A stretch of 64,000 nucleotides of DNA, from the IMG/VR virus record IMGVR_UViG_3300024346_000003. One strand, 5' to 3'. Below are positions 4,947-62,421 of this stretch, in pieces. Below the pieces are notes generated by a model that had not been told where the DNA came from, ran no database searches, and saw only the letters and a list, made by a program, of their open reading frames with translations. The DNA is from a virus (taxonomy: Duplodnaviria; Caudoviricetes). The stretch's first letter is position 1. Every line of letters starts with the position of its first letter. Both the position numbers and the translations under genes were made by a program.

Positions 4947-5007
4947 ATATTTATGTTTTATTATAAATATTAAGATATTTGAATATATTTATTATTAAAA
5001 TATATTT

Positions 5008-5478
5008 ATGAGATTCACTAAAGAATATTTTGAAAAAAATAAGCCTCTTACCAATGAAATTAAATTGGATGAGTTAATTGATATGGATGGAACACCTATT
5101 GAAGGTGACTTCAAACCTGGTTATAGTGATATACAAACAGGTCCAGTAGCTAAATCATTTAATGATAATTCTGATTATGAAAAAGGATTACCAACTACAA
5201 CGGATAAAATGGCTACATATGCACAACCAAGAAGTTGGTGGGCACTTTACTATGGTTATGGTGGAACACCTTATAGTCATGGTAATAAACCTATTTCTGA
5301 AGCTGAAATGTTAGAATCTTTAGTTGATAAAAAGGAAGATAAAGATATTGTTGAAAAAACAAAAGATTTGGACTTAGAAGAAAAATTAAAACAAATTGAG
5401 GATATCGTTAATAAATCAGATTTATCTGATAAAGATAAAAAAGAGATGTTAAATGTAATTAATGATTCTAAACAATAA
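5008..5478 (+). CDS. Hypothetical late protein
   Basis: 156 aa; ATATTTAT at 4985-4992. Confidence 0.7.
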   Translation: MRFTKEYFEKNKPLTNEIKLDELIDMDGTPIEGDFKPGYSDIQTGPVAKSFNDNSDYEKGLPTTTDKMATYAQPRSWWALYYGYGGTPYSHGNKPISEAEMLESLVDKKEDKDIVEKTKDLDLEEKLKQIEDIVNKSDLSDKDKKEMLNVINDSKQ

Positions 5479-36286: not shown

Positions 36287-36820
36287 TTAACTATTTTGTA
36301 TTTGATTGATTCGCTCTTTTTTTCTAACTATCTCTTCTTTATTCTGTGCTATAACACCAAAACGGTCCGCATATGTCCCATTTTTAAACTCTACTTCCAG
36401 AGAAGCAGTTTCTTTTTCTAATTGTTTAATTTGACGCTGTAATGATTTAATAGTCTTAATATCTTCTGGACGTAGGATACCTACCTCTTTACGTTCCCAA
36501 TATAATTCTGGTGGATTACCTACTTCAACTTTTGTAATACCTTTATCATCATAATACGCAAAATAAGGCCTACCATGTTCTGTATGACCTATTAACCCTT
36601 CACTTCGGTTGATTATAGATTTTAAAAAAGAAGCTTGTTTTTCACTTTTAAACATACCATTATTATTTTTAGCCAACCCTAATACAGACATTTTTAAATC
36701 AGTAAAATTTTCGGATAAAACATCTTTACTATTTTGAACCAACCCTTTTGATTCTAAATATCTTTGTTCAGCTAATAAATTTACTTTTTCTATATTAGTT
36801 GTTTTATCAAATCTTCTCAT
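36287..36820 (-). CDS. Hypothetical late protein with LAE/LES leader
   Basis: MRRFDKTTNIEKVNLLAEQRYLES; ATATTTAT at 36834-36841. Confidence 0.7.
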   Translation of the reverse strand: MRRFDKTTNIEKVNLLAEQRYLESKGLVQNSKDVLSENFTDLKMSVLGLAKNNNGMFKSEKQASFLKSIINRSEGLIGHTEHGRPYFAYYDDKGITKVEVGNPPELYWERKEVGILRPEDIKTIKSLQRQIKQLEKETASLEVEFKNGTYADRFGVIAQNKEEIVRKKERINQIQNS

Positions 36821-37548: not shown

Positions 37549-37579
37549 CAAATATACTAATAATATTTTAAATAGTCAA
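37549..37579 (-). promoter_or_regulatory. Bacteroidota-type promoter
   Basis: TTGACT-N17-TATATTTG on minus strand. Confidence 0.75.
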
Positions 37580-37680: not shown

Positions 37681-39462
37681 TTATCTTAATTCATTGATGT
37701 TAAATGTTGGTACACCATCAACTCTTACATGTCCGTAAAAACGGTTGTTCACAACTTTTTTTGCATATCTCGTCATAATTCCCTTTACTGGTGCAAAGTT
37801 GAACGGGTTATACATTGTAGGTGTAAGTTGCATTGGCACGTATGGTGCGTAGATGTAACCTGTATCTAACAATGATTTTCCTTTATGACCGATAATCATT
37901 GAGTAGAAAGGTGCATATGGGTCACGGTACACTTGGTAACGACCTGACAATGAACCTACTCTTTCAATACCCATGTTGTATTGGTCTTGCTCTGGGTTAG
38001 CATCACTTACGTGGAAGTACTCTAAATCATCCATGATTGCAGATATTTCAGAAGAAATTACGATAAAGTTAGCACCACCTCTAAGGGTTGATTTGTGAAT
38101 TTGTGCTGAAATTTGGTTAACTTTAGTAATTAAAGTTTGATTCCAGTCTTTTTGCGTGTATGGACTAGCAGCTGAAGAAGCTTTTCTCCATCCGTTATAA
38201 TCCCAACGTAATTGCCATGCAGCAGCTTTTCTTAAGTCTCTTAAGATTTCACGGTCAATTTCAGCAGCAACTTGCTCAGAAAGCATAGCTGTTAATTCTG
38301 CCTCAGCATCGATGTTGTGGAATGCACTAACATCTTGAGCTAATTCTGGAGACCATGTAGCTCTTAGTTTTCTTTCTTCTACAGAAACAACAACTTCATC
38401 CAATTTGAATGATACTTCACCCATTTCAGTTTCTAATTCTAATGAATCATAACGTCCCCAAGCGATTGAGAAATCAAGAGCCGTTGTAGTTGTACCAGTA
38501 ACACCAACATAACCATCGTAAGTTGGAGTAGTAACAGCTGGGTGAGTTAAATCTAATTCAACATACATAACACCAACAGCGTCACAGATATCACCATAAG
38601 AAACGATACCTTTACCATATTTTTGTGTTACTAATCTGAATGGAACTGAACCATTAGCAGCAACAACTGCAAAACCATCTTGGTCAAGTAATGTATTGTC
38701 AGAAACAATGATTAATGATGCTAAGAAAGCTTCAGTATCCATTTCGTTTCCGTCTGGACCTGTTAATCTACCAGCTCTAACGTCAGAGAAACCAGAGATT
38801 GCAATAATTGCATTTCTAATTGAACCATCAGTTGCAGTAGGTAGGAAAGAAAAATCAGCAACTGTATTAAAGTTACCATTAGTACCTAAAGTTTTCAATA
38901 CACCATCACCAACTGCGATAGTCAATGTACCTTTAGAGTTATCAAACATACCATCGTTGTAGAAAATATCGTACAAGTTTTTAGCTTGGTATGGAGTTAC
39001 TGTACAACCGTCAACTGGTTGAACACAACTTGGTAATTGGTCACCCATACCTGTGTGTGCAGAGTAAGTAGTACCGTAAGGTGTTGTAGCGTAATTATCA
39101 CCAGCGTTTCCGTTAGCATCAACTCTTGAAGAAGTTTGAGGTACGAAGAAAAACAATTTACCGATTGGCATGTTCATAGCTTGTACAGATACTACATCAT
39201 TAGCTAATAATTTAGAGAAAACTCTTCTTACGATTGGGAAAACTACAGTTTCGAAAGAACCTGAAGACGTAGAGTCTGTAGCTTCAGTTAAAATTGAAGA
39301 AGCTTGGTTCTCATATAACTGAGCAACGTTTTCCTTAATGTGGCCCTTAAGACCTTCCAAGAATCCTAAAGATTCCCATTTAGATTGTGTTTGTCTACGG
39401 ATTTCCTTCATGTGGTTTAATCCGATGTTTCCAACTTGTCCTGAGTTTAAAAATTGTGACAT
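37681..39462 (-). CDS. gp23: Major capsid protein (T4 gp23-like)
   Basis: KWESLGFLEGL..LYENQ, VSVQAMNMPIG, RKLRATWSPELAQD..AELTAMLSEQVAAEIDREI, GYIYAPYVP, KGIMTRYA. Confidence 0.95.
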   Translation of the reverse strand: MSQFLNSGQVGNIGLNHMKEIRRQTQSKWESLGFLEGLKGHIKENVAQLYENQASSILTEATDSTSSGSFETVVFPIVRRVFSKLLANDVVSVQAMNMPIGKLFFFVPQTSSRVDANGNAGDNYATTPYGTTYSAHTGMGDQLPSCVQPVDGCTVTPYQAKNLYDIFYNDGMFDNSKGTLTIAVGDGVLKTLGTNGNFNTVADFSFLPTATDGSIRNAIIAISGFSDVRAGRLTGPDGNEMDTEAFLASLIIVSDNTLLDQDGFAVVAANGSVPFRLVTQKYGKGIVSYGDICDAVGVMYVELDLTHPAVTTPTYDGYVGVTGTTTTALDFSIAWGRYDSLELETEMGEVSFKLDEVVVSVEERKLRATWSPELAQDVSAFHNIDAEAELTAMLSEQVAAEIDREILRDLRKAAAWQLRWDYNGWRKASSAASPYTQKDWNQTLITKVNQISAQIHKSTLRGGANFIVISSEISAIMDDLEYFHVSDANPEQDQYNMGIERVGSLSGRYQVYRDPYAPFYSMIIGHKGKSLLDTGYIYAPYVPMQLTPTMYNPFNFAPVKGIMTRYAKKVVNNRFYGHVRVDGVPTFNINELR

Positions 39463-39495: not shown

Positions 39496-40845
39496 TTATC
39501 TTTTTTCGACTCTATTCATCAAATCTTTGATTCTTTGAGTTTCTTTGTCGATATAAGCGGTAGACTCATTTAATTGTTTTGATACACCACTTGTAACATC
39601 TTTATTTAATTTTCTATCGATTGATTCGGTCATTGGTTTTCTAGAAGACAATTCACTAACAATCGTTTTGTATAACCTTTTTGATTCTTTAAGAGTTGAA
39701 ACTTCTTCATCAAATCTTTTTAAGATTACTTGTTTCTCATCTTTAGTTGTAGTTTGTTCCATAAACAACTTAGTTACGTAAGTTAAATTAGAATTGAATA
39801 CAACTGTTTCTGCTAACATAGTTCTGAATTGTTTAAGAGCTTCTTTGTATTCTTCATTTTTACCTCTTAAATCTTTAGTTTCAGCTAACAGATTATTATA
39901 TTTGTTCGCAACTTCATTAATAGACATTGTTGATTTCTTAGACTCTTTTAAGTTATCAGCACCAGCACCTTTAGGTTGACCAATATTAGCTTTACCTGGT
40001 AATCTGTGTGCTTGACCAGAACCAACTGGAATTGATTCTTCCAAAGTTTCTTCTTCTTCAGTTTCTTCTTCTTCTTCAGATTCTGACATAACCATATCAC
40101 CTTCAGCTTTCGCATGAGCCATATCGTCATCAAATCCACCTTCTAAATTATCACCAGCCCAGTTATCGTCATTTTCATTACCCAACGGAGCTTTAATACC
40201 ATCAATGTTTTCCATCTCATCAAGTGCGATTTCATACATAACTTCGTCAACTTCTTCAGTTTCTTCTTCACCACCACCAAATGCATCAGCAGAAAATTCA
40301 TCAGTATCAACATCAGCTGTAAAATCATCAGCATCACCTTCAGGTTCTACTCCAGATTCTTCAGCGCCAGTTTTGATAATAAATTTCCCTGGTTCATTTA
40401 CAGATAGTTTAATGTCTCCTGTTTCATCGTCAACAACAACTTCAATTTCACTATCACCAGTAAGTTCTTTATAAACTCTGATAACAGCATCGTCAGACGC
40501 TCCTGTCATATCAACCGTGTCTCCACCAAGCGGCTCAGCGCTCATACTCATTTCGTCATTACCTTCTAGGTCATCACCTTCTATTGAGTCATCAGTTGTA
40601 ACTACATCATCAGTATCCGTTTCTTCTTCAGTATCTTCTACTTCAGCTCCCACTTCAACGTCATCTGTCGTTTCATCAGCATCTTCTTCATCATAATCTT
40701 TTTCAAAAGATTCTTTCACTAATCCATCAATTTCTTCGATAGCTACACTTCGAAGTATTTCTTTTGTGTTGGCGTTAAGTGCCTCTTGGATTCTTTTCGC
40801 ATCCAATAGAGCGCTTTCAATAATAGATTTATTTTTTTCTGCCAT
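39496..40845 (-). CDS. Prohead scaffolding/core protein
   Basis: Between protease and capsid; very acidic centre with many xxE sites; coiled-coil C-terminus. Confidence 0.8.
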   Translation of the reverse strand: MAEKNKSIIESALLDAKRIQEALNANTKEILRSVAIEEIDGLVKESFEKDYDEEDADETTDDVEVGAEVEDTEEETDTDDVVTTDDSIEGDDLEGNDEMSMSAEPLGGDTVDMTGASDDAVIRVYKELTGDSEIEVVVDDETGDIKLSVNEPGKFIIKTGAEESGVEPEGDADDFTADVDTDEFSADAFGGGEEETEEVDEVMYEIALDEMENIDGIKAPLGNENDDNWAGDNLEGGFDDDMAHAKAEGDMVMSESEEEEETEEEETLEESIPVGSGQAHRLPGKANIGQPKGAGADNLKESKKSTMSINEVANKYNNLLAETKDLRGKNEEYKEALKQFRTMLAETVVFNSNLTYVTKLFMEQTTTKDEKQVILKRFDEEVSTLKESKRLYKTIVSELSSRKPMTESIDRKLNKDVTSGVSKQLNESTAYIDKETQRIKDLMNRVEKR

Positions 40846-40949: not shown

Positions 40950-41648
40950 TTAATCTAATAAAAATTTATTTAATCCATCGATTAATAAATTCTTTTCTAT
41001 TTTAACTGATTCAACGAATGGTTTAGATTCAGCCCTATCTTTAAACATCCAAGAGCCAGGTGTGCTAGGTGCTGTTACAATATCCCAACAAATTATTTCA
41101 AAATCTTCTTGAACAATGTGGTCACCATTAACTTCTCTTAATGAACCAACACCTCTAGATGATACACCAATCATAATATTATTTCTTAAAAGATTTGCAA
41201 CTTCATCACCTTTAGTTGATACAATACCAAGGTTAATATAACCTGGAGTCATTAAGATTTCCATTTTACCCATTAAGGTTTTACCTTCCCACCACGTTTC
41301 AATAATATTATGTGATACTCTATCACCAGCTATAATTGAAGACTCTGGGTGGTCTAATTCACCTATTGCTCTTCTTTCTCTAATTAATTGTTGGTACCTA
41401 TCATTTTCTCTTTTAAGAATTGGTTCTGGATATATCCTACCATTTCTATTTTTAACACTATGTTTTTGTAAGACAACATAAACAACTAGTGGTTCATTGA
41501 TAGTAGGGTGTGAGTCAGAATTCAAACTTTTCATTTCAGTTATAAAAGGTTTGTTTCTAATATCACTAGGCGAAATATAGCCAGCATCAGATTCAACCAT
41601 GAATCCAAAACCAGTCTCACCAGCTTTTAATATTTTAATGTCTGACAT
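40950..41648 (-). CDS. gp21: Prohead maturation protease (T4 gp21-like)
   Basis: NRNGRIYP, GELDHP, RVSH, GVSSRGVGS, WDIVTAPS; start likely ATG 41648. Confidence 0.93.
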   Translation of the reverse strand: MSDIKILKAGETGFGFMVESDAGYISPSDIRNKPFITEMKSLNSDSHPTINEPLVVYVVLQKHSVKNRNGRIYPEPILKRENDRYQQLIRERRAIGELDHPESSIIAGDRVSHNIIETWWEGKTLMGKMEILMTPGYINLGIVSTKGDEVANLLRNNIMIGVSSRGVGSLREVNGDHIVQEDFEIICWDIVTAPSTPGSWMFKDRAESKPFVESVKIEKNLLIDGLNKFLLD

Positions 41649-41682
41649 ATTACTTTTTATTAATAAATATGCCATATAAAAC

Positions 41683-41712
41683 AAAAAACCCCGAACTTAA
41701 TTCGGGGCTTTA
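41683..41712 (-). terminator. Intrinsic terminator
   Basis: CCCCGAA-cttaa-TTCGGGG with A6 on plus strand. Confidence 0.8.
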
Positions 41713-42909: not shown

Positions 42910-43686
42910 TTAATTTTGGGTTAGATTGTTTTTTAATTCTATAATTTTTGAAACATCTGAAATAAAAGTTTCTTTATTATAGTTTCTATTTAAAAGATTT
43001 TCTTTAGTTGCTAATAACTTTTCTTTAATATCACCAGATGACTCTGTTAATTTGTTATTAATAATTTCTAAACACTCTTTTATTGATGATTTATATAACA
43101 CTTCTTTTTCAGATTCATTAACACCCATAATAACTGAAACCACCTTCATTTCCGATTCAGTTAAATCAGAATATTGTTCATTAAATTTCTCAACCGCAAT
43201 TTCTGAAATAATACTATTAGGCAAACCATTCCATTCGTTAACTTCTGCTTTTTTATTGTTTAGTATATAATCAACGATTCCACTTTTTGCATTAACAATT
43301 TTATCGATATTCGTTGATGATTTCTTAGTGAAAATTAATGTATTAATATCTTCATATAATTTTGACTTAGCATCATCCAGCGTAATTTTAATAGTACCAA
43401 AGATTTTGTTTTCAGTTAATTTTAAATTAACGTCTTTAATTTCTTTTTTTGAAAAACCATCCAATAATGAAATACATTCATTAACGAATTCTGAAGCTTT
43501 AAATTTATCAGACTCAATTTTGTTCTCAATAGAATAATAAACATCGAATTGAGTTTTCAATGCTTTGTTTTCTTTTATTGTTCTAATATAATTCTTAAAT
43601 GCTACTTTACCATCACTAGTTTTTTTAGCAATACCTTCAGCTAATAGAATATTGTATGTTGATTTTATCGTACCAAAATTATTCAT
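42910..43686 (-). CDS. Head-module hypothetical protein
   Basis: 258 aa directly after portal; ATATTTAT at 43701. Confidence 0.7.
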   Translation of the reverse strand: MNNFGTIKSTYNILLAEGIAKKTSDGKVAFKNYIRTIKENKALKTQFDVYYSIENKIESDKFKASEFVNECISLLDGFSKKEIKDVNLKLTENKIFGTIKITLDDAKSKLYEDINTLIFTKKSSTNIDKIVNAKSGIVDYILNNKKAEVNEWNGLPNSIISEIAVEKFNEQYSDLTESEMKVVSVIMGVNESEKEVLYKSSIKECLEIINNKLTESSGDIKEKLLATKENLLNRNYNKETFISDVSKIIELKNNLTQN

Positions 43687-47841: not shown

Positions 47842-47879
47842 AGGTTTTTATTAATAAATATGTGAAAACACGCAAAAAC

Positions 47880-47912: not shown

Positions 47913-49052
47913 TTAGAATAAATCCTCTATCTCAAATAAATCATCACCCATTGATTCATTATATTCATCTTCTTTTATTTCTCGTTTTATTTCATTTAAT
48001 AATTCTGAAATAATTTCTTTACCTCTTTTAGTACCCCCTAGTATCTCTCTCATCGTATGAGCATATTCCTTAGGTTCCAATTGTGAAATATCAGCATATA
48101 CATGATGCTTTAAATTAAAATCACCAGCTGGTATCATAGCACAGAATTTACCCCATAAACCAGGACCAATTCTCATATCCCATGGTTCAGCTTGTACAAA
48201 ATCTGATTTGTTAATAACATACTCAGCTATATTTTTTTTATTTGGTAAACCAGGTGCTGATAGAATTTCCATACAACCTTTAACCAATTCATGTATTAAT
48301 ACTGGGAAAACCATTGCTTTAGCATTTAATGTTGTTGGTTTGTTTTTTTCTTTTGAACCAAACTCAACTTCACATTTACCAGCATTTGTTGAACTCTCTA
48401 AAGTTGGCTGCAAATAATACATGTAATCAGCGGCAGTCATCATTTTTTTATAATTGTTAATCAATTTAGGATTCATATTAGTTAATTCAGCATCAGCTAA
48501 ATGATACATATGATTAACTTTTTTTGCAGCACCTTGATTCATTGCATTTACAAATCTTCTTTTATATACACTATCATTTGCATACTCCATTTCATCGTGG
48601 TCATCAAATTCAGTGATGGTTTCTTGGTCAGGTACTAAATTTGTACCATTTAAATCAATATAAGGTGTTAATTCAGCATTTATAATAACTTCTTCTGGTA
48701 TATCGAATTCTTCTCTAACCATTTTAACAGCTAATTCTACTAATTCTTTTTTGTGTTTTTCTTCTAAAGACATTGTATCATTAACTAAAGGCATCATTTC
48801 CATCATTAAAGACATATTATCTATCTCCTCAACATTAAATGCTTTTTTAACTTCATTAACAACATCTTTAAATCTTTCACCAACAATTGCTGTTGCAAAA
48901 TTTCGTTCATTACCAACTGGAAAACAAGGACTTTCACCTAAAGAAGTTTTATTACTTAATAAATCTTCCTCAAGTTTTGGGTGCATTCTTTCTTTTAAAT
49001 CTTTTGGGTAAATAAGACTTTCAGCTAATATGTTTTTAGTTCTTCTACTCAT
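47913..49052 (-). CDS. Hypothetical late protein
   Basis: 379 aa; MSRRTKNILAES leader. Confidence 0.75.
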   Translation of the reverse strand: MSRRTKNILAESLIYPKDLKERMHPKLEEDLLSNKTSLGESPCFPVGNERNFATAIVGERFKDVVNEVKKAFNVEEIDNMSLMMEMMPLVNDTMSLEEKHKKELVELAVKMVREEFDIPEEVIINAELTPYIDLNGTNLVPDQETITEFDDHDEMEYANDSVYKRRFVNAMNQGAAKKVNHMYHLADAELTNMNPKLINNYKKMMTAADYMYYLQPTLESSTNAGKCEVEFGSKEKNKPTTLNAKAMVFPVLIHELVKGCMEILSAPGLPNKKNIAEYVINKSDFVQAEPWDMRIGPGLWGKFCAMIPAGDFNLKHHVYADISQLEPKEYAHTMREILGGTKRGKEIISELLNEIKREIKEDEYNESMGDDLFEIEDLF

Positions 49053-49498
49053 TATTTTAAATCTTTAACTTTTATTGTTTTTATAACTTTTCTTTTATTT
49101 TTTACAGATTCATCTATAGAACCTAATTTAGACATATAATCTTGACCTTCAGGTGAATTTAACCAGTCATTATAGTCTTCTCTATTTCTATCATCTCTAT
49201 CCGCAAGATTCTCAATATCTGAAGGACCTAAATCACCAAAATCTTCACCAGTTCCAGGATGATTATTTTCACTCACACCATCACCCTTTATAAATGTACC
49301 CATTGGTCCGTCTATAATATCTTTATTTGTTTTAGCCACTTTCTTATCCAAATCCTCAAGTGCTTTTTTAGATTTTTCAATATCTTCAGGCTTTATTAAT
49401 TTTGATTTATCATTTTGTTGGTTAACATCAGTTGTATTGCTAGTATTTACAACAGCATTTGCAGCTGCTTCAAGTATACTTATTTTTTTAATTCTCAT
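49052..49498 (-). CDS. Hypothetical acidic protein
   Basis: 148 aa; MRIKKISILEA leader. Confidence 0.7.
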   Translation of the reverse strand: MRIKKISILEAAANAVVNTSNTTDVNQQNDKSKLIKPEDIEKSKKALEDLDKKVAKTNKDIIDGPMGTFIKGDGVSENNHPGTGEDFGDLGPSDIENLADRDDRNREDYNDWLNSPEGQDYMSKLGSIDESVKNKRKVIKTIKVKDLK

Positions 49499-51726: not shown

Positions 51727-52512
51727 TTAAGCTTTTTTTTTTAAAGTATTTAACAATGCTTCTTTTTCAGATTCAGTTAATGAATTTAAAATACCACTTA
51801 CTTTATCAGAAGTATCTTCACCAATAATTGAATCCATTCTAGCCATTGCAGTTTCAATACTAAAACCTTTTTTAGATTCAGGTATATTTATTTCTTTTGG
51901 TGGGTTAGGTAGTTGATTAGGGTCATCTTCATTTCCCATAGTGTAATCAACATCATCTAACATTTCATCGATAGCCATTTCATTTTCAGATAATTTAACA
52001 GCTTCAAATTCATCATCAGCATCTTTGTTAGCAAGATTATCACCAAATTGACCTTCTTCCTTACCTTCTTTAGAATCGTAAGATAATTTTTCACCAGATT
52101 TATCTAAAATATCTTTAGATGCATCATTTTCAGCTAACAAATTGTCATCTACAAATGCATTGTAGCTACTAATTTTACCATGAGCTTCATTTAAACTCAT
52201 TAATTTTAAATTCAAATGTTTAATAGCTTTTGCGTATGATGGGTATACTTCAGATGTCTTATTCATCAAACCACCAATGTAATTGAAATCTTCAGTTACT
52301 AAATTTGATTGTTTGTCAGTTATTTTAATAAAATAATTGTGACCTTCTCTAACCACACCATAAACCTTACCATCAGGTCCTAATTTAGTCAATTCAACAA
52401 CAGAATTTTTAACGTCTTCATTTAATTGGGATTGACCCATTAATTCTCGCATTCTGTTAAGCTTATCATTACCTTTTAACCCTGTAGGTTTAACTATAAA
52501 TGGATTCTTCAT
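51727..52512 (-). CDS. Hypothetical late protein ending in A10 slippery tract
   Basis: 261 aa ending TTA AAA AAA AAA GCT TAA. Confidence 0.75.
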   Translation of the reverse strand: MKNPFIVKPTGLKGNDKLNRMRELMGQSQLNEDVKNSVVELTKLGPDGKVYGVVREGHNYFIKITDKQSNLVTEDFNYIGGLMNKTSEVYPSYAKAIKHLNLKLMSLNEAHGKISSYNAFVDDNLLAENDASKDILDKSGEKLSYDSKEGKEEGQFGDNLANKDADDEFEAVKLSENEMAIDEMLDDVDYTMGNEDDPNQLPNPPKEINIPESKKGFSIETAMARMDSIIGEDTSDKVSGILNSLTESEKEALLNTLKKKA

Positions 52513-52857: not shown

Positions 52858-52890
52858 TAAAAATGGGATACTTTCATACCCCATTTATTT
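52858..52890 (-). terminator. Intrinsic terminator
   Basis: minus strand ATGGGGTAT-gaaa-GTATCCCAT then T-tract. Confidence 0.75.
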
Positions 52891-52891
52891 T

Positions 52892-53302
52892 TTATTTTGA
52901 TTGACTGTCGGCAATTAACTTATTAATTCTATTTCTACCTTTCTCTCCGATTGGTATTGGATTACCTTCTTCATCAATTTGTACAAATTTTATATGTGTT
53001 TTTAAAACTAAAACTTGTTTCCCAGTATAAACATTATGGGCCCTGGCTTCCATGTATAACGTTACAGATGAATTACCAACTTGCGTTGGGTAACCATAGA
53101 TTTTAAGTAACTGACTTTCTCTAGCTGGCTTCTCAAAGATACATTTATCAATTGATACAGTCACCATTCTAGGTGTATCACACAATTGCATTGAATATGC
53201 AGCAGCTGCCGCATCAATCCAAGCCAATAGTTTACCACCGAACAAATTACCATGGAAACCTAAGTCTGATTTTTTAATTGGGTGTTGGTTTAATTGTTCC
53301 AT
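52892..53302 (-). CDS. Acyl-CoA thioesterase (hotdog, YciA-like)
   Basis: DLGFHGNLFGGKLLAWIDAAA..MVTVSID..GNSSVTL..FVQIDEEGNP. Confidence 0.9.
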   Translation of the reverse strand: MEQLNQHPIKKSDLGFHGNLFGGKLLAWIDAAAAAYSMQLCDTPRMVTVSIDKCIFEKPARESQLLKIYGYPTQVGNSSVTLYMEARAHNVYTGKQVLVLKTHIKFVQIDEEGNPIPIGEKGRNRINKLIADSQSK

Positions 53303-53805
53303 TATTTTAACACTTGTTTTATTTTATTAACATACCCCTCTAGTAATACAATCTTTCTTCTAATACTAATCTTATCCATATCCGCCAACATTCTTAAGTA
53401 ATCGTTTAATTCATCTAATTGGTTAAATTCTTCTTTTAAAAGTTTAGATGCTTCACTTTCCATTAATTCTGCCATATTGAGTTTATCTGAAATGTTTAAT
53501 TTTTTATCCCATTTTTCAACAACTTCAGGAAATGTGTTTTTAATTGCGTTCTGTTGTCTGATTGGTATATCACTTTCCATTAATCCTGATAAATTTACCT
53601 TTTGTGTTTTGAAAGTCATATCTTTATCTAACCCATCTAATAACCCAGTAGCTTCCCATTTTTTTATGGTTTTCTCTCGTTCCCATATTTTTATAAATGA
53701 CTCAATTGTGGGTGTATATATTCTTCTCTCCCACTCTTCAAAACTTATATGTGGTTCTTGATTTACAAATAAGTAATTTTCATATTGTGTTCTTAATGTT
53801 GCCAT
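53302..53805 (-). CDS. Hypothetical protein carrying capsid-propeptide-like motifs
   Basis: KWEATGLLDGL and KLNMAELMESEASKLLKE match the N-terminus of the window's capsid protein. Confidence 0.7.
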   Translation of the reverse strand: MATLRTQYENYLFVNQEPHISFEEWERRIYTPTIESFIKIWEREKTIKKWEATGLLDGLDKDMTFKTQKVNLSGLMESDIPIRQQNAIKNTFPEVVEKWDKKLNISDKLNMAELMESEASKLLKEEFNQLDELNDYLRMLADMDKISIRRKIVLLEGYVNKIKQVLK

Positions 53806-53808
53806 AAT

Positions 53809-54006
53809 TTATTTTTTATTTTGATTGACTGTCAATTGTTGGGGTCTTTCCACCCATTCTTTATATGAATAATCATATATAGAACCGTCACTAGATTCTA
53901 GTATAAATCTAGTACTAGATTTAAATCTTTCAATATCTGTCCAATCAGATATTTCAATATCTTTAAGGATATCACCTACTGGGTTTAATAATTTTAATTT
54001 AATCAT
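53809..54006 (-). CDS. Small hypothetical protein
   Basis: 65 aa in operon. Confidence 0.6.
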   Translation of the reverse strand: MIKLKLLNPVGDILKDIEISDWTDIERFKSSTRFILESSDGSIYDYSYKEWVERPQQLTVNQNKK

Positions 54007-54009
54007 AAT

Positions 54010-55263
54010 TTAATTGCTTAGTGGTGCTTTAATTGTTGGGTGTGATTGGTAGTCTTTTAAGATAAATCCATCTAACTCGTAATTATCAATATATGTTTCT
54101 TTTTCATATTTGAAAAATAATTTTGGTAGTGTATATGGTTCTCTTGTTCGTGTTGGTATATTCCATTGGTCAATTTCAGAATGCGATAATGTACTACTGT
54201 CTCCACCGTTATAAATTTGATTAAACATTTCTTGATTAACCATCGCTCTTCGTTCATCTAAAGTTAACTCTCTACCAATCTGTTCCTTTGCTTGTTCAAC
54301 ATGATTCAAATACAAATGTGTATCACCCAAGTTACCAATCAATTCATCAGGAACCATATTGACTTCCTTAGCAATGATTTCTAATAACAAACCATAAGAT
54401 GCAATATTGAATGGTAAACCTAAGAATGTATCTACTGAACGTTGATTCCACATTAAAGAGATTGCTCGTTTAGGAATGTTAAATGAGTTTAGTTTTTTAT
54501 GACCTTCATAACTTTCTACATAATCAATCTCCCACATTCCTCGTTTGCCTGTTTCATTTTGATTTTGTTGATACCATAGTTCAATACGTTCTTCCAAACT
54601 CAACACTCTTGTAAAAAACTGAAAATCTGTATGACAAGGGGGTAATACCATTTCATTTAATTCACCAACATTCCAAGCAGAAACTCTATTGCGTCTGGAG
54701 TCTGGGTCTGTTTTAAGTAAATTGATTGCGTTTTGTATTTGGTCTGTTCCTTTAATACCGTAACCTCTTTCTTCAGTTTGAGGCTCATAACCCCAATTTC
54801 TCCATTGTTTACCATACACTGGACCTAATTCACCCCACTTGTTAGCAAACTCATCATTAGTTTTTATTTTATTAATAAATTCTTCTTGTGTTAATAATCT
54901 TGAAGTTGCATTATAAATAGGTCCTTCTACAATAACTATATCTTTATTAATTTCTAAATTAAGATTTATGTTTTGATTTTTGTTAATAAAATTTTTATAC
55001 GCATCACCATCCCAAATGTGACAATTATTATCAATAAGATATTTAATGTTTGTATCACCACGTAAAAACCACAACAATTCTGTTACAATTCCTTTGAAAT
55101 ACATCTTTTTTGATGTAATCAGTGGAAAACCATCTGACATCTTGTGTCTGATTTGCCTTCCGAATACAGATATCGTACCTGTTCCAGTACGGTCTTGCTT
55201 GGTTACTCCGTTATCTAGGATATCTTGGAGTAGGTCTGTGTATTGTTTATCTAGTTTGTTCAT
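54010..55263 (-). CDS. thyA: Thymidylate synthase with insertions
   Basis: DRTGTGT, ELLWFLRG, LGPVYGKQWR, VSAWNV, LPPCH, QRSVDTFLGLPFNIASY, DTHLYLNH. Confidence 0.97.
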   Translation of the reverse strand: MNKLDKQYTDLLQDILDNGVTKQDRTGTGTISVFGRQIRHKMSDGFPLITSKKMYFKGIVTELLWFLRGDTNIKYLIDNNCHIWDGDAYKNFINKNQNINLNLEINKDIVIVEGPIYNATSRLLTQEEFINKIKTNDEFANKWGELGPVYGKQWRNWGYEPQTEERGYGIKGTDQIQNAINLLKTDPDSRRNRVSAWNVGELNEMVLPPCHTDFQFFTRVLSLEERIELWYQQNQNETGKRGMWEIDYVESYEGHKKLNSFNIPKRAISLMWNQRSVDTFLGLPFNIASYGLLLEIIAKEVNMVPDELIGNLGDTHLYLNHVEQAKEQIGRELTLDERRAMVNQEMFNQIYNGGDSSTLSHSEIDQWNIPTRTREPYTLPKLFFKYEKETYIDNYELDGFILKDYQSHPTIKAPLSN

Positions 55264-55406
55264 TTTAAATATTTTGTTTTATAGTCTAGCACTATTAATA
55301 TTGCTTCTCTTATTTTTTCATCATGTGTTGATTCATGTAGTAATTTTAACGTCTTATCAAAATCATCTATAAGATATGTATCGTATTGTTTATCTAGGCT
55401 GTTCAT
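55260..55406 (-). CDS. 48-aa ORF starting with a copy of the thyA 5' end
   Basis: MNSLDKQYDTYL...KYLK*; ATGA overlap with thyA start. Confidence 0.6.
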   Translation of the reverse strand: MNSLDKQYDTYLIDDFDKTLKLLHESTHDEKIREAILIVLDYKTKYLK

Positions 55407-55623
55407 TGTATTTTTTTATAAACCATTTAATTCCTGTTATTTTATGAAGGTAGTATAAAACAATCTTTTTCTTATTTTTAGTCCATATTTTTCTTGTTCC
55501 ATTCTTATCTGAAAATATCATATATGGTGTTTCAATTAGGATATAAGGTGTATAGACTATTTTAGATTCGACAATCCTTTCCTCCATCGTAATATTAATA
55601 GTCGGTATTTCTTCTTTATTCAT
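55390..55623 (-). CDS. Small hypothetical protein
   Basis: 77 aa, overlapping both neighbours. Confidence 0.6.
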   Translation of the reverse strand: MNKEEIPTINITMEERIVESKIVYTPYILIETPYMIFSDKNGTRKIWTKNKKKIVLYYLHKITGIKWFIKKYNEQPR

Positions 55624-56280: not shown

Positions 56281-56311
56281 CAAATATACTGATATTTATT
56301 TAAAAAAACAA
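56281..56311 (-). promoter_or_regulatory. Bacteroidota-type promoter
   Basis: TTGTTT-N17-TATATTTG on minus strand. Confidence 0.7.
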
Positions 56312-56360: not shown

Positions 56361-58880
56361 ATGAATAGAGAGATTATACCAAAATTAAAAATCATTATCG
56401 GTGAAGCTGTTAAAGAAGCTCGATTGATGGATGATACACTAGTAAAGCCAGAACACATACTAATTTCAATAATTAATGACAATGATAATGCGTGTTCAGA
56501 TACATTAAAAAGTCTAGGACTTAATTTAGTATTACTTAATGATTGTTTAATTCTTGAAGTTAGAAATTCAAATCTAACACCTAGAATTGATAATAGCACT
56601 AAAGTAACCGTACCTTTTAGTAAAGAAAGTAAATTATTATTTAAAGCTGTTGATTTTGAATCTAAAAGTTTAGGTGATAACCACATAGACACAACACACA
56701 TCATGATGGCTATGTTAAATACAAATAACAAATTAAATATTAGAAAATTATTAAATAGTACTGGGATTTATTATGATAAATTTATAAGCGCAGTTAAACA
56801 AATACGAGATATGTTGAATGAAGAAAATAATTCATCAGATGATGAAAGTGAATTTGATTATTCTAATAGTGAGAATGATAGAAAAGATAAAAAACCAAAA
56901 AGAAGTGCACCTAGTAAAACACCAGTTCTAGATAATTTCTGTACCGATATTACAAAATTAGTTGATGAAAATAAAATTGACCCAGTTGTTGGTAGAAATA
57001 AAGAAATTAAAAGAGTTACTCAGATTTTATCAAGGAGAAAGAAAAATAATCCAGTATTAATCGGTGAAGCTGGTGTTGGTAAAAGTAGTATTGTTGAGGG
57101 TATCGCATTATTAATTAAAAGTGGGTCAGTACCCAGAACATTAATGGGTAAAAAAATCTATTCATTAGATTTGGCATCAGTTGTTGCTGGTACTAAATAC
57201 CGAGGTCAATTTGAAGAGCGAATTATAGCTATTTTAGATGAACTAAAAGTTAATACTGATATAATCTTATTCATTGACGAATTACACACCTTTATAGGTG
57301 CTGGAAATGCATCAGGTTCGCTAGATGCATCAAACATATTCAAACCAGCATTGGCTAGAGGTGAAATTCAAGTAATTGGTGCAACAACATTAGATGAATT
57401 TAGAGAGCACATCGAAAAAGATAGTGCATTAACTAGAAGATTCCAACAAGTATTGGTCGAAGCAACTACCGTAGAAGAAACTAAAATTATCTTAAATAAT
57501 ATTAAAGATAAATATGAAAAATACCATAAAGTAACTTATACACCTGAAGCTATTGACGAATGTGTTAAAATGGCTGATAGATATATTACCGATAGAGCTA
57601 TGCCAGATAAAGCAATTGATGTTTTAGATGAAGCTGGTGCAAGTACAAATATTGCACATGAACTTCCAGAAAATATTAAAAAACTAGAACTTAAAAAAGA
57701 TGACATATTAAAAAAGAAATTAGAGGTTGTCCAAAAACAAAAATACGAAGAAGCTGCTGAACTTAGAGATGAGGAAAGAAAGGTGAATGAAGATTTAGAC
57801 AAAGCTAAAAAGAATTGGATAGAATCTTTAGATAAAAAAAGAACAATAATTGATGTTAATTTAATTGCTGAAACAGTATCAACAATGACTGGAATTCCAT
57901 TAAGTAAAATCTCCTCACAAGAGAATAAAAAACTTATGTCAATGGATAAGGATTTGATGGGTAAAGTAATTGGTCAAGATGATGCAGTACTTAAAGTGAT
58001 TAAAGCTATCAAAAGAAATCGTTTAGGTATTAGAAATAGAAATAAACCAATCGGTTCATTTATTTTCTTAGGACCAACTGGTGTTGGTAAAACACATTTA
58101 AGTAAATTATTAACTGAAGAGATATTTGGTGATTCAGATGCATTAATTCGTATTGATATGAGTGAATACATGGAAAAACATTCAGTATCTAAATTAATTG
58201 GTTCACCTCCAGGATATGTTGGGTTTGAACAAGGTGGTCAATTAACTGAAAAAGTTAGAAGAAAACCATATTCAGTTATTTTATTTGATGAAATTGAAAA
58301 GGCACATGATGATGTATTCAATATCTTACTACAATTACTAGATGAAGGTCAATTAACTGATAGTTTTGGTAGAAAAATAAACTTCAAAAATTGTCTAATA
58401 ATACTTACATCAAATGTTGGTGCTAAAGAATTGACTAGCTTTGGTAAATCTATGGGGTTCCAAACTGATTCTGTTATTTCTAATGAAGAAGAAAGAACTC
58501 GTTCAATTATTGAAAAAGCACTTAAAAAGAAATTCAAACCAGAATTCTTAAATAGACTTGATGAAATTATAGTCTTTAATAGCTTAAAAGAGGAAGATAT
58601 TCATAAAATAATCTATAACGAACTTGATAAATTAAAAGAACGTGTATTAGAAATGGGTTATAATATTAAAATAAATAAATCAGCTATAGAATTTGTTGCT
58701 AAAAATGGGTATGATGAAGCTTATGGTGCCAGACCATTAAATAGAGCAATCCAAAGATACATTGAGGACCCAATTGCTGATGAAATTTTAAGTGGTAATT
58801 TCAAGGAAGGTGAAACTATAAACATAACCTTAGATAAAACCAAAAACGAAATAGTAATCAAAGGAGATAAAACTAAATAA
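56361..58880 (+). CDS. clpC: ClpC-type AAA+ chaperone
   Basis: Clp N repeats, GEAGVGKS, LFIDELH, short UVR-like M domain (QKYEEAAELRD), GPTGVGKT, FDEIEKAH, GARPL. Confidence 0.9.
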   Translation: MNREIIPKLKIIIGEAVKEARLMDDTLVKPEHILISIINDNDNACSDTLKSLGLNLVLLNDCLILEVRNSNLTPRIDNSTKVTVPFSKESKLLFKAVDFESKSLGDNHIDTTHIMMAMLNTNNKLNIRKLLNSTGIYYDKFISAVKQIRDMLNEENNSSDDESEFDYSNSENDRKDKKPKRSAPSKTPVLDNFCTDITKLVDENKIDPVVGRNKEIKRVTQILSRRKKNNPVLIGEAGVGKSSIVEGIALLIKSGSVPRTLMGKKIYSLDLASVVAGTKYRGQFEERIIAILDELKVNTDIILFIDELHTFIGAGNASGSLDASNIFKPALARGEIQVIGATTLDEFREHIEKDSALTRRFQQVLVEATTVEETKIILNNIKDKYEKYHKVTYTPEAIDECVKMADRYITDRAMPDKAIDVLDEAGASTNIAHELPENIKKLELKKDDILKKKLEVVQKQKYEEAAELRDEERKVNEDLDKAKKNWIESLDKKRTIIDVNLIAETVSTMTGIPLSKISSQENKKLMSMDKDLMGKVIGQDDAVLKVIKAIKRNRLGIRNRNKPIGSFIFLGPTGVGKTHLSKLLTEEIFGDSDALIRIDMSEYMEKHSVSKLIGSPPGYVGFEQGGQLTEKVRRKPYSVILFDEIEKAHDDVFNILLQLLDEGQLTDSFGRKINFKNCLIILTSNVGAKELTSFGKSMGFQTDSVISNEEERTRSIIEKALKKKFKPEFLNRLDEIIVFNSLKEEDIHKIIYNELDKLKERVLEMGYNIKINKSAIEFVAKNGYDEAYGARPLNRAIQRYIEDPIADEILSGNFKEGETINITLDKTKNEIVIKGDKTK

Positions 58881-60003: not shown

Positions 60004-60034
60004 CAAATATACTAATTAATTATCATATTTGCAA
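60004..60034 (-). promoter_or_regulatory. Bacteroidota-type promoter
   Basis: TTGCAA-N17-TATATTTG on minus strand. Confidence 0.75.
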
Positions 60035-62390: not shown

Positions 62391-62421
62391 CAAATATACT
62401 AAATCTAAAGTAAAATATCAA
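62391..62421 (-). promoter_or_regulatory. Bacteroidota-type promoter
   Basis: TTGATA-N17-TATATTTG on minus strand. Confidence 0.75.

Follow-up and report, generated by a model that had tools for sequence, protein, structure and literature searches.

A free-standing relative of the capsid protein propeptide, joined to a helical hairpin, in the thyA operon of a T4-like phage

The gene P0002 lies on the minus strand of the 64,000-nucleotide stretch of DNA analysed here (hereafter, the window), which comes from a freshwater phage of ~300 kb. Sequence comparison indicates that it encodes no capsid protein but a small mosaic, in which a paralogue of the propeptide of the gp23-type major capsid protein (MCP) is fused to a helical hairpin. 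P0002 is not an MCP, since the HK97-fold body is absent: the Pfam Gp23 body gave no match at E <= 0.001, and the only entry that Pfam lists is LPD26, at 0.072. What the gp23-type propeptide does during head assembly is poorly understood, T4 included. We put forward, tentatively and at somewhat less than an even chance, that the module engages the partners of the MCP propeptide, namely the scaffold core and the prohead protease, either to gain entry to the prohead or to modulate its assembly. The initial annotation had interpreted P0002 as a mimic of the propeptide, and this stands, as do the two observations on which it built, the propeptide homology and the thyA operon with a host-type promoter; the functions it proposed, a defence decoy, interference with relatives and tuning of head size, are hypothetical.

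Anatomy of P0002 and its homology with the MCP propeptide

The gene and the parts of its protein are the following.

53302..53805, minus strand: P0002 gene, 167 aa, stop codon included in the coordinates (ORF listing, translation, 107 homologues)
53701..53805, minus strand: aa 1-35, N-terminal segment, found in the closest family subgroup only (alignment)
53569..53700, minus strand: aa 36-79, copy 1 of the MCP-propeptide-like module (HMM domain 1, E 3.9e-16)
53629-53661, minus strand: KWEATGLLDGL, aa 49-59, inside module copy 1
53572-53601, minus strand: KVNLSGLMES, aa 69-78, inside module copy 1
53428..53547, minus strand: aa 87-126, degenerate module copy 2 (HMM domain 2, E 1.5e-7)
53431-53484, minus strand: KLNMAELMESEASKLLKE, aa 108-125, end of module copy 2
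53453..53606, minus strand: span with a 117-nt (39-codon) in-frame segment (repeat search; blastn against L060)
53305..53427, minus strand: aa 127-167, family-defining C-terminal helical hairpin (conserved columns, AF2, C-domain HMM)

The pN/pS of P0002 against its relatives is 0.1-0.25, and 0.02-0.13 was obtained over whole genes; P0002 is a real gene under purifying selection. Read from the alignments and profiles, its protein is a mosaic of an N-terminal segment, the module, a degenerate second copy and the C-terminal hairpin. AF2 places helices in aa 1-35 at a pLDDT of ~65 and at 118-142 and 148-166 at ~80, the hairpin being the sole confident part; its invariant or near-invariant columns are L133, N134, Y136, L137, M143, I146, R150, K151 and L154. 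The 117-nt segment, which includes the second module copy, is missing in the relative L060, where the flanks are 98% identical. It is bordered by direct DNA repeats (53453-53489 and 53570-53606), and its exact placement is ambiguous. These repeats establish that KVNLSGLMES, at first noted as a weaker copy, reflects a true internal duplication.

The capsid side of the comparison is provided by two features.

37681-39462, minus strand: gp23-type MCP, 593 aa (Pfam Gp23, PF07068, 3.2e-71)
39283..39462, minus strand: MCP propeptide, MCP aa 1-60, ending ILTE before ATDS (Pfam, alignment of 21 MCPs)

The last propeptide residue, E60, is invariant among the 21 aligned MCP N-termini, and cleavage after it is predicted by correspondence with Glu65, the maturation site of T4 gp23 (PMC9546572, PMC9026906). 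MCP aa 28-60 hold KWESLGFLEGL and KENVAQLYENQASSILTE, the two stretches to which P0002 had originally been likened. A recount agrees with the identities then given, 7/11 for KWEATGLLDGL with KWESLGFLEGL and 9/18 for KLNMAELMESEASKLLKE with KENVAQLYENQASSILTE, and the separation from the capsid gene, put at ~14 kb, measures 13.8 kb. Both motifs occur together in P0002 and the MCP only, among 703 six-frame segments of the window. Pairwise, BLASTP joins P0002 to the MCP through the first motif (E 0.001), and the relative P0047, a tidier version than P0002, is colinear with MCP aa 5-60 (E 4e-6). The likeness lies in the protein rather than the DNA, with the same codon at 7 of the 18 identical residues, which points to an old paralogy and not to a recent patch.

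Profiles carry the homology further. A module HMM made from 36 small-protein sequences and zero MCPs was searched over 8,261 ORFs, taken in six frames from the window and from related loci. Its non-family matches are MCP N-termini only, at 1.3e-9, 7.9e-9 and 1.1e-8 in three complete relatives and at 6.7e-6 for the MCP of the window, the following match standing at 0.066; the similarity is thus above background. In addition, hhalign of the whole family with MCP N-termini gives a probability of 98.2% and an E of 2.8e-14 over 47 columns, corresponding to MCP aa 16-62, with copy 1 of P0002 placed on MCP aa 16-43 and copy 2, which is without the GLLDGL part, on aa 44-62. A stand-alone homologue of the MCP propeptide, as first proposed, is therefore well supported by both methods, and by these alignments the two motifs are part of one module of ~45 residues homologous to MCP aa 16-62. 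In the module HMM as in hhalign, the homology of the P0002 family ends at the maturation Glu and does not reach the mature MCP. P0002 itself carries W50, G54, L56, G58 and LLKE125, so that both the W/G/L/G core of the propeptide and a terminal L/I-x-E are present. Orthologues preserving both motifs are found in the alignment of homologues, and, where present, the motifs are among the best conserved parts. The module begins at aa 36, away from the N-terminus, which counts against a head-directed role.

Other searches with P0002 returned little. Nothing was found at E <= 0.001 in Pfam, PHROG or PDB sequences, the weak listings not being credible, and an ESM Atlas feature search yielded nothing usable. 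A PADLOC match to Csn2 (PDLC02148, 1.3e-5) was rejected as compositional, given that 3 of 31 members match and that Pfam Csn2 does not. A resemblance of the hairpin to the MCP N-arm (IRRK... against PIVRRVF...) was likewise dropped, as hhalign did not reach the N-arm.

The thyA-linked locus, its promoters and the hairpin family

P0002 belongs to an operon with the following elements.

56281..56289, minus strand: promoter-like motif GTATATTTG, with a TAnnTTTG -7 box, upstream of the operon (motif inspection)
54010..55263, minus strand: thyA, 417 aa, long form with inserts (Pfam Thymidylat_synt, 2.7e-89)
53809..54006, minus strand: 65-aa ORF between thyA and P0002
52892..53302, minus strand: 4HBT thioesterase, last gene of the operon (Pfam 4HBT, 2.1e-15)
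52861..52886, minus strand: terminator-like strong hairpin with T-run, closing the operon

The gene order is small ORF, KTSC protein, two small ORFs, thyA, 65-aa ORF, P0002 and thioesterase; P0002 starts 3 nt past the upstream ORF, and its stop overlaps the start of the thioesterase gene. The membership in a thyA operon under a host-type promoter, claimed from the outset, is borne out by the TAnnTTTG motif (56289-56281), by the adjoining ORFs and by synteny, thyA preceding the hairpin gene, in the same orientation, in ~22 of 37 IMG/VR loci (tblastn). Divergent from the operon lies a gene for a ClpB/ClpC-like double-AAA+ chaperone of 839 aa (56361-58880, plus strand; Clp_N, AAA, AAA_lid_9, AAA_2, ClpB_D2-small), which is conserved in L060.

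Two motif classes can be distinguished in the window. The first, AGTATATTTG, which we take to be the TAnnTTTG box of the Bacteroidota sigma-A type, occurs in its longer form at five sites. Four of these (56281-56289, 37549-37557, 60004-60012 and 62391-62399, minus strand) are intergenic and upstream of non-structural genes, and the fifth is inside the end of o602. The second, ATATTTAT[AT]A followed by an A-rich stretch, is found 10-25 nt ahead of the starts of structural or late genes, at 47861, 43708, 40904, 52819 and 36841 on the minus strand and at 4985, 7373 and 33493 on the plus strand. It precedes TerL, the scaffold gene, the gene after portal and the plus-strand genes at 5008, 7395 and 33514, as well as the 85-aa ORF immediately past the terminator. 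From their placement, the two classes look like the early and late promoters of the phage. The thyA operon has the early type only, the stretch from 56289 to the terminator being free of late-type motifs. P0002 is therefore most probably expressed early, and this counts against a head-directed role. The T4 late promoter TATAAATA is not enriched in the window, and a sigma-70 scan gave fewer sites than in shuffles. Parts of the P0002 gene, or of a variant of it, are represented in contigs from two metatranscriptome studies, at a very low depth (~2) that is no evidence of transcription or of its timing.

The 107 metagenomic homologues of P0002 define an unnamed, thyA-linked hairpin family (P0004-P0110, L001-L037), with the C-domain pattern ...LNDYL...IGIRRK..LLEGY.NK.K. 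The corresponding C-domain HMM scores P0002 at 2e-26 and matches a single gene per related locus and nothing else. Among 50,697 cultured phage records, tblastn found no credible relative of P0002, P0145 or P0111. In L007 the hairpin gene is downstream of a short-form thyA, and in the complete 304-kb relative G002 it is directly 3' of one, a case overlooked by the tblastn tally; a thioesterase gene follows the hairpin gene in ~9 related loci. In complete relatives the hairpin gene is ~100 kb from the MCP gene. Many family members of the thyA locus are without the module, which indicates that the hairpin is independent of it and again counts against a head-directed role.

The comparison with L060 shows how variable this locus is. 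The flanks are 98% identical between L060 and the window, whereas thyA is 74% identical, the 65-aa ORF (53809-54006) is absent from L060, and P0002 differs by the 39-codon indel. Together with the low pN/pS, this indicates that P0002 is a maintained gene in a recombination hot spot, and, whatever its function, the gene marks a thyA-adjacent hot spot in otherwise 98%-identical phages. Over the wider interval, 54009-55607 against L060:3474-4989, thyA and the surrounding small ORFs are ~74% identical or replaced outright.

Some family members are long forms (L016:9206-10210, L017:9200-10222, L031:7804-8772), with an N-terminal region of ~250 aa fused in frame. This region holds LTWSPEMAQDVSG, resembling MCP aa 364-380 (BLASTP 1e-4), and also resembles MCP aa 546-563 (E 0.002), and so might possibly consist of further MCP-derived pieces.

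The module on other small proteins

A module-only profile, searched against 1.84 billion cluster representatives, matched 500 proteins at E up to 1e-3. We inspected the 148 newly returned proteins among the best 150 of these 500 (two were already known). The C-domain pattern of P0002 appears in 3 of the 148, one of the three being a chance pattern match, and ~26 are MCPs or MCP fragments. The remaining best matches include complete small proteins, such as a ~100-aa ...KKHC class and a ...DRIMF class, along with tandem-module and near module-only proteins; some of the "small" matches are surely truncated, frameshifted or interrupted MCP genes. One conserved module is thus combined with at least five unrelated classes of tail, and on this distribution the hairpin family and the module are separable things. 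It also indicates that free-standing propeptide copies are common in uncultured T4-like phages. Among the matches listed, ~47 small proteins are little beyond the module, some of them perhaps fragments, and these count against a head-directed role. In the genomes of Flavobacterium phage immuto, Microcystis phage Mel-JY01 and RM378 the module profile matched MCP N-termini only, or nothing, and in LR756508 it matches a single weak 118-aa ORF. A limited literature search found no published description of stand-alone MCP-propeptide paralogues.

The genomic setting of some copies is informative. P0142, whose class is a different one, is found in two contigs of different sources within a series of small ORFs that look early. 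In G002, a 152-aa protein composed of the module and an unrelated tail is encoded 1.1 kb upstream of the hairpin gene, and in G004 a 139-aa mimic of the MCP N-terminus directly follows the hairpin gene. The fusion of module and hairpin in the window and their proximity in G002 and G004, three lineages only, hint at a functional link.

The pattern of conservation within the module tells which residues matter. W29, G33 and L35 are invariant in the MCP propeptides (n=21), and the non-MCP module proteins retain W in 123/123, G in 122/123 and L in 123/123. Of 119 small proteins, 71 have E and 16 have D where the MCP has its cleavage Glu, and 109 have L or I at P3. The ENQ motif, in contrast, keeps its MCP-invariant Gln in 55/123 and its Asn in 22/123; its predominant loss suggests that some MCP-specific contact has been given up, a further point against a head-directed role. 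The free-standing copies thus reveal W, G and L as the important residues and the ENQ Asn and Gln as dispensable, and they are ready reagents for probing the binding partners of the propeptide.

Some metagenomic proteins among P0137, P0182 and P0121 have MCP pieces in a non-native order, with the spine-helix region or N-arm ahead of the propeptide module. One MCP N-terminus runs into an apparent GIY-YIG nuclease motif, judged by eye, which suggests that MCP genes are interrupted by mobile elements in some relatives.

Candidate functions of the module

The genes that precede the MCP gene in the same orientation encode an acidic scaffold-like protein, a gp21-type prohead protease, portal and TerL. 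Two of these genes are relevant here.

39496..40845, minus strand: acidic scaffold-like protein, encoded immediately 5' of the MCP gene (position, composition, >1,400 homologues; family name not found)
40950..41684, minus strand: prohead protease, gp21-type (phrog_207, 1.9e-39)

A gp21-type prohead protease is expected to cut L/I-x-E sites. Five minus-strand genes with the late motif (47913-49052, 49052-49498, 42910-43686, 36287-36820 and 39496-40845) have T4-style leaders, which end in ...NILAE, ...ISILE, ...ILLAE and ...NLLAE and, in the scaffold, in ...SIIE; such leaders make their products candidates for packaged or core proteins that the prohead protease would cut. An acidic late protein of 261 aa (51727-52512, minus strand) has the N-terminus TGLKGNDKLNRMRELMGQSQ followed by LNE, like MCP aa 7-26. 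Its BLASTP E against the MCP, 6e-4 in a very small search space, gives modest support to the idea of a head protein whose leader possibly derives from the MCP.

In T4, the leaders known as capsid-targeting sequences (CTS) attach to the core and are cut off at L/I-x-E, while the N-terminus of gp23 is thought to be turned towards the core (PMC3012670, PMC9026906, PMC9546572). By analogy, the module of P0002 would do as it does in the MCP, contacting the scaffolding core of the assembling prohead and presenting L/I-x-E sites to the gp21-type protease. The protein, made from an early operon, would have to last until head formation; it would then be drawn into the core, or compete there, through the docking contacts of the MCP, and be cut there. 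It could thereby serve as a passenger or as part of the core, in the manner of proteins with a capsid-targeting sequence, or else modulate the docking of MCP on the core. Core binding, cleavage and effects on the head are what we infer for P0002 from several lines of support. The homology coincides with the propeptide (MCP aa 16-62), the invariance or near-invariance of W, G and L is common to MCPs and small proteins, and at the cleavage-aligned site Glu is kept in about 60% of the small proteins and L/I at P3 in most. Moreover, one module joined to many unrelated tails (the C-domain of P0002, ...KKHC, the 152-aa protein of G002) is what a ticket would look like. The gp21-type protease, the ILAE, SILE and LLAE leaders of late-motif genes adjoining the head cluster and the MCP-like N-terminus with LNE of the 261-aa late protein also support docking. 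Taken with the published behaviour of T4 capsid-targeting sequences (PMC3012670, PMC9026906, PMC5694885), the module data make docking the most economical mechanism. If the module is head-directed, it would amount to a second, MCP-derived kind of targeting leader, usable for cargo loading into large capsids.

Comparison with known systems gives parallels as well as differences. In the T4 gp23 propeptide (first 65 residues) and its counterparts in T4-like MCPs, a homologous KW..GLL[DE]GL is followed colinearly by K.N.A.L.E..A..L.E, and the P0002 module, like the gp23 propeptide, ends at the position of the maturation Glu. Unlike an MCP propeptide, however, it is stand-alone, does not retain Asn and Gln of ENQ, is joined to a hairpin and belongs to an early-type operon. 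T4 IPI, IPII, IPIII and Alt offer a likeness in their conserved L/I-x-E-ended leader on diverse small tails, and T4 internal-protein genes, like the module genes, are located in variable regions away from the head cluster (PMC3012670, PMC9026906). Nevertheless, the T4 CTS forms the first 10-19 residues of its proteins and has no relationship to the gp23 propeptide (PMC3012670, PMC9026906), whereas the module has ~45 residues, is MCP-derived and, in P0002, internal. P0002 has no L/I-x-E before aa 42, while neighbouring late genes have such leaders; lacking a leader at its extreme N-terminus, it falls outside the strict T4 CTS class. CpmB of the SaPI satellites reportedly forms a small helical dimer and imitates the end of the helper phage scaffold that binds the capsid. 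P0002, too, is a small helical protein with a motif copied from an assembly contact, and it could compete where MCP and scaffold meet. CpmB, however, is the weapon of a satellite and imitates the scaffold, while P0002 is a product of the phage itself and imitates the MCP. Subtilisin- and cathepsin-propeptide-like inhibitors are free-standing propeptide-like proteins acting in trans; the concept is alike, though the proteins and enzymes are unrelated. To our knowledge, there is no capsid example of a free-standing propeptide-like protein.

In an alternative scenario, which we regard as rather unlikely, P0002 is directed at the host: a free copy of the propeptide, made before the MCP, would occupy a host factor that meets the MCP N-terminus, be it a capsid-sensing defence (with P0002 as decoy or inhibitor) or a chaperonin handling the MCP. 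The early-type promoter and the company of nucleotide-metabolism genes would fit, as would the existence of module-only proteins, the row of small early-like ORFs around P0142 and the fact that the epitope copied by the module is the best conserved one of T4-like MCPs and is presumably exposed. Local variability of the kind seen against L060 is typical of arms-race genes. For the chaperonin, the gp23 N-terminus of T4 is said to direct proteins to GroEL; no Cpn10 was found in three complete relatives, in which divergent gp31-type co-chaperonins could escape detection. On the other hand, a faithful copy of a trigger should activate a sensor rather than blind it, we know of no defence that senses the propeptide, and P0002 has no credible match to PADLOC or other defence families. 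Were the module directed at the host or at rival phages, it would represent a new class of mimicry effector.

The more general proposition, that T4-like jumbo phages make early free copies of an exposed piece of coat which blind a capsid sensor or poison the heads of rivals, seems to us unlikely; if either a counter-defence or a weapon reading were true, capsid-propeptide mimicry would be a widespread and undescribed phenomenon. Interference with rivals taken by itself is very improbable. It holds that a consensus-like fragment poisons head assembly in relatives, while the phage's own MCP propeptide has diverged to escape. Indeed, the module scores far higher with MCP N-termini of other clades (P0133, 56.8 bits; P0144, 54.7 bits) than with those of its own clade (24.6-36.5), and its TGLL is the general MCP consensus, while MCPs of the window clade have LGFL. 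Yet an ancestral state retained by the small proteins gives the identical pattern, the mimic next to the hairpin gene in G004 bears the own-type GFL, and the own MCP retains all invariant residues. Equally doubtful is an evolutionary passenger, in which recombination put a functionless MCP-derived segment on a functional hairpin protein: the frequent loss of the module in the family, the cassette-like mosaics and the internal duplication flanked by a DNA repeat are as expected, but the key module residues are conserved as well as the hairpin, pN/pS is low across whole genes, module included, and the module occurs with other tails on hundreds of 50%-identity clusters.

A minor observation concerns the prohead protease gene. 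A late-type motif (41661-41670, minus strand) is situated just within the 5' end of its TTG-started ORF, and the true start is probably a downstream ATG.
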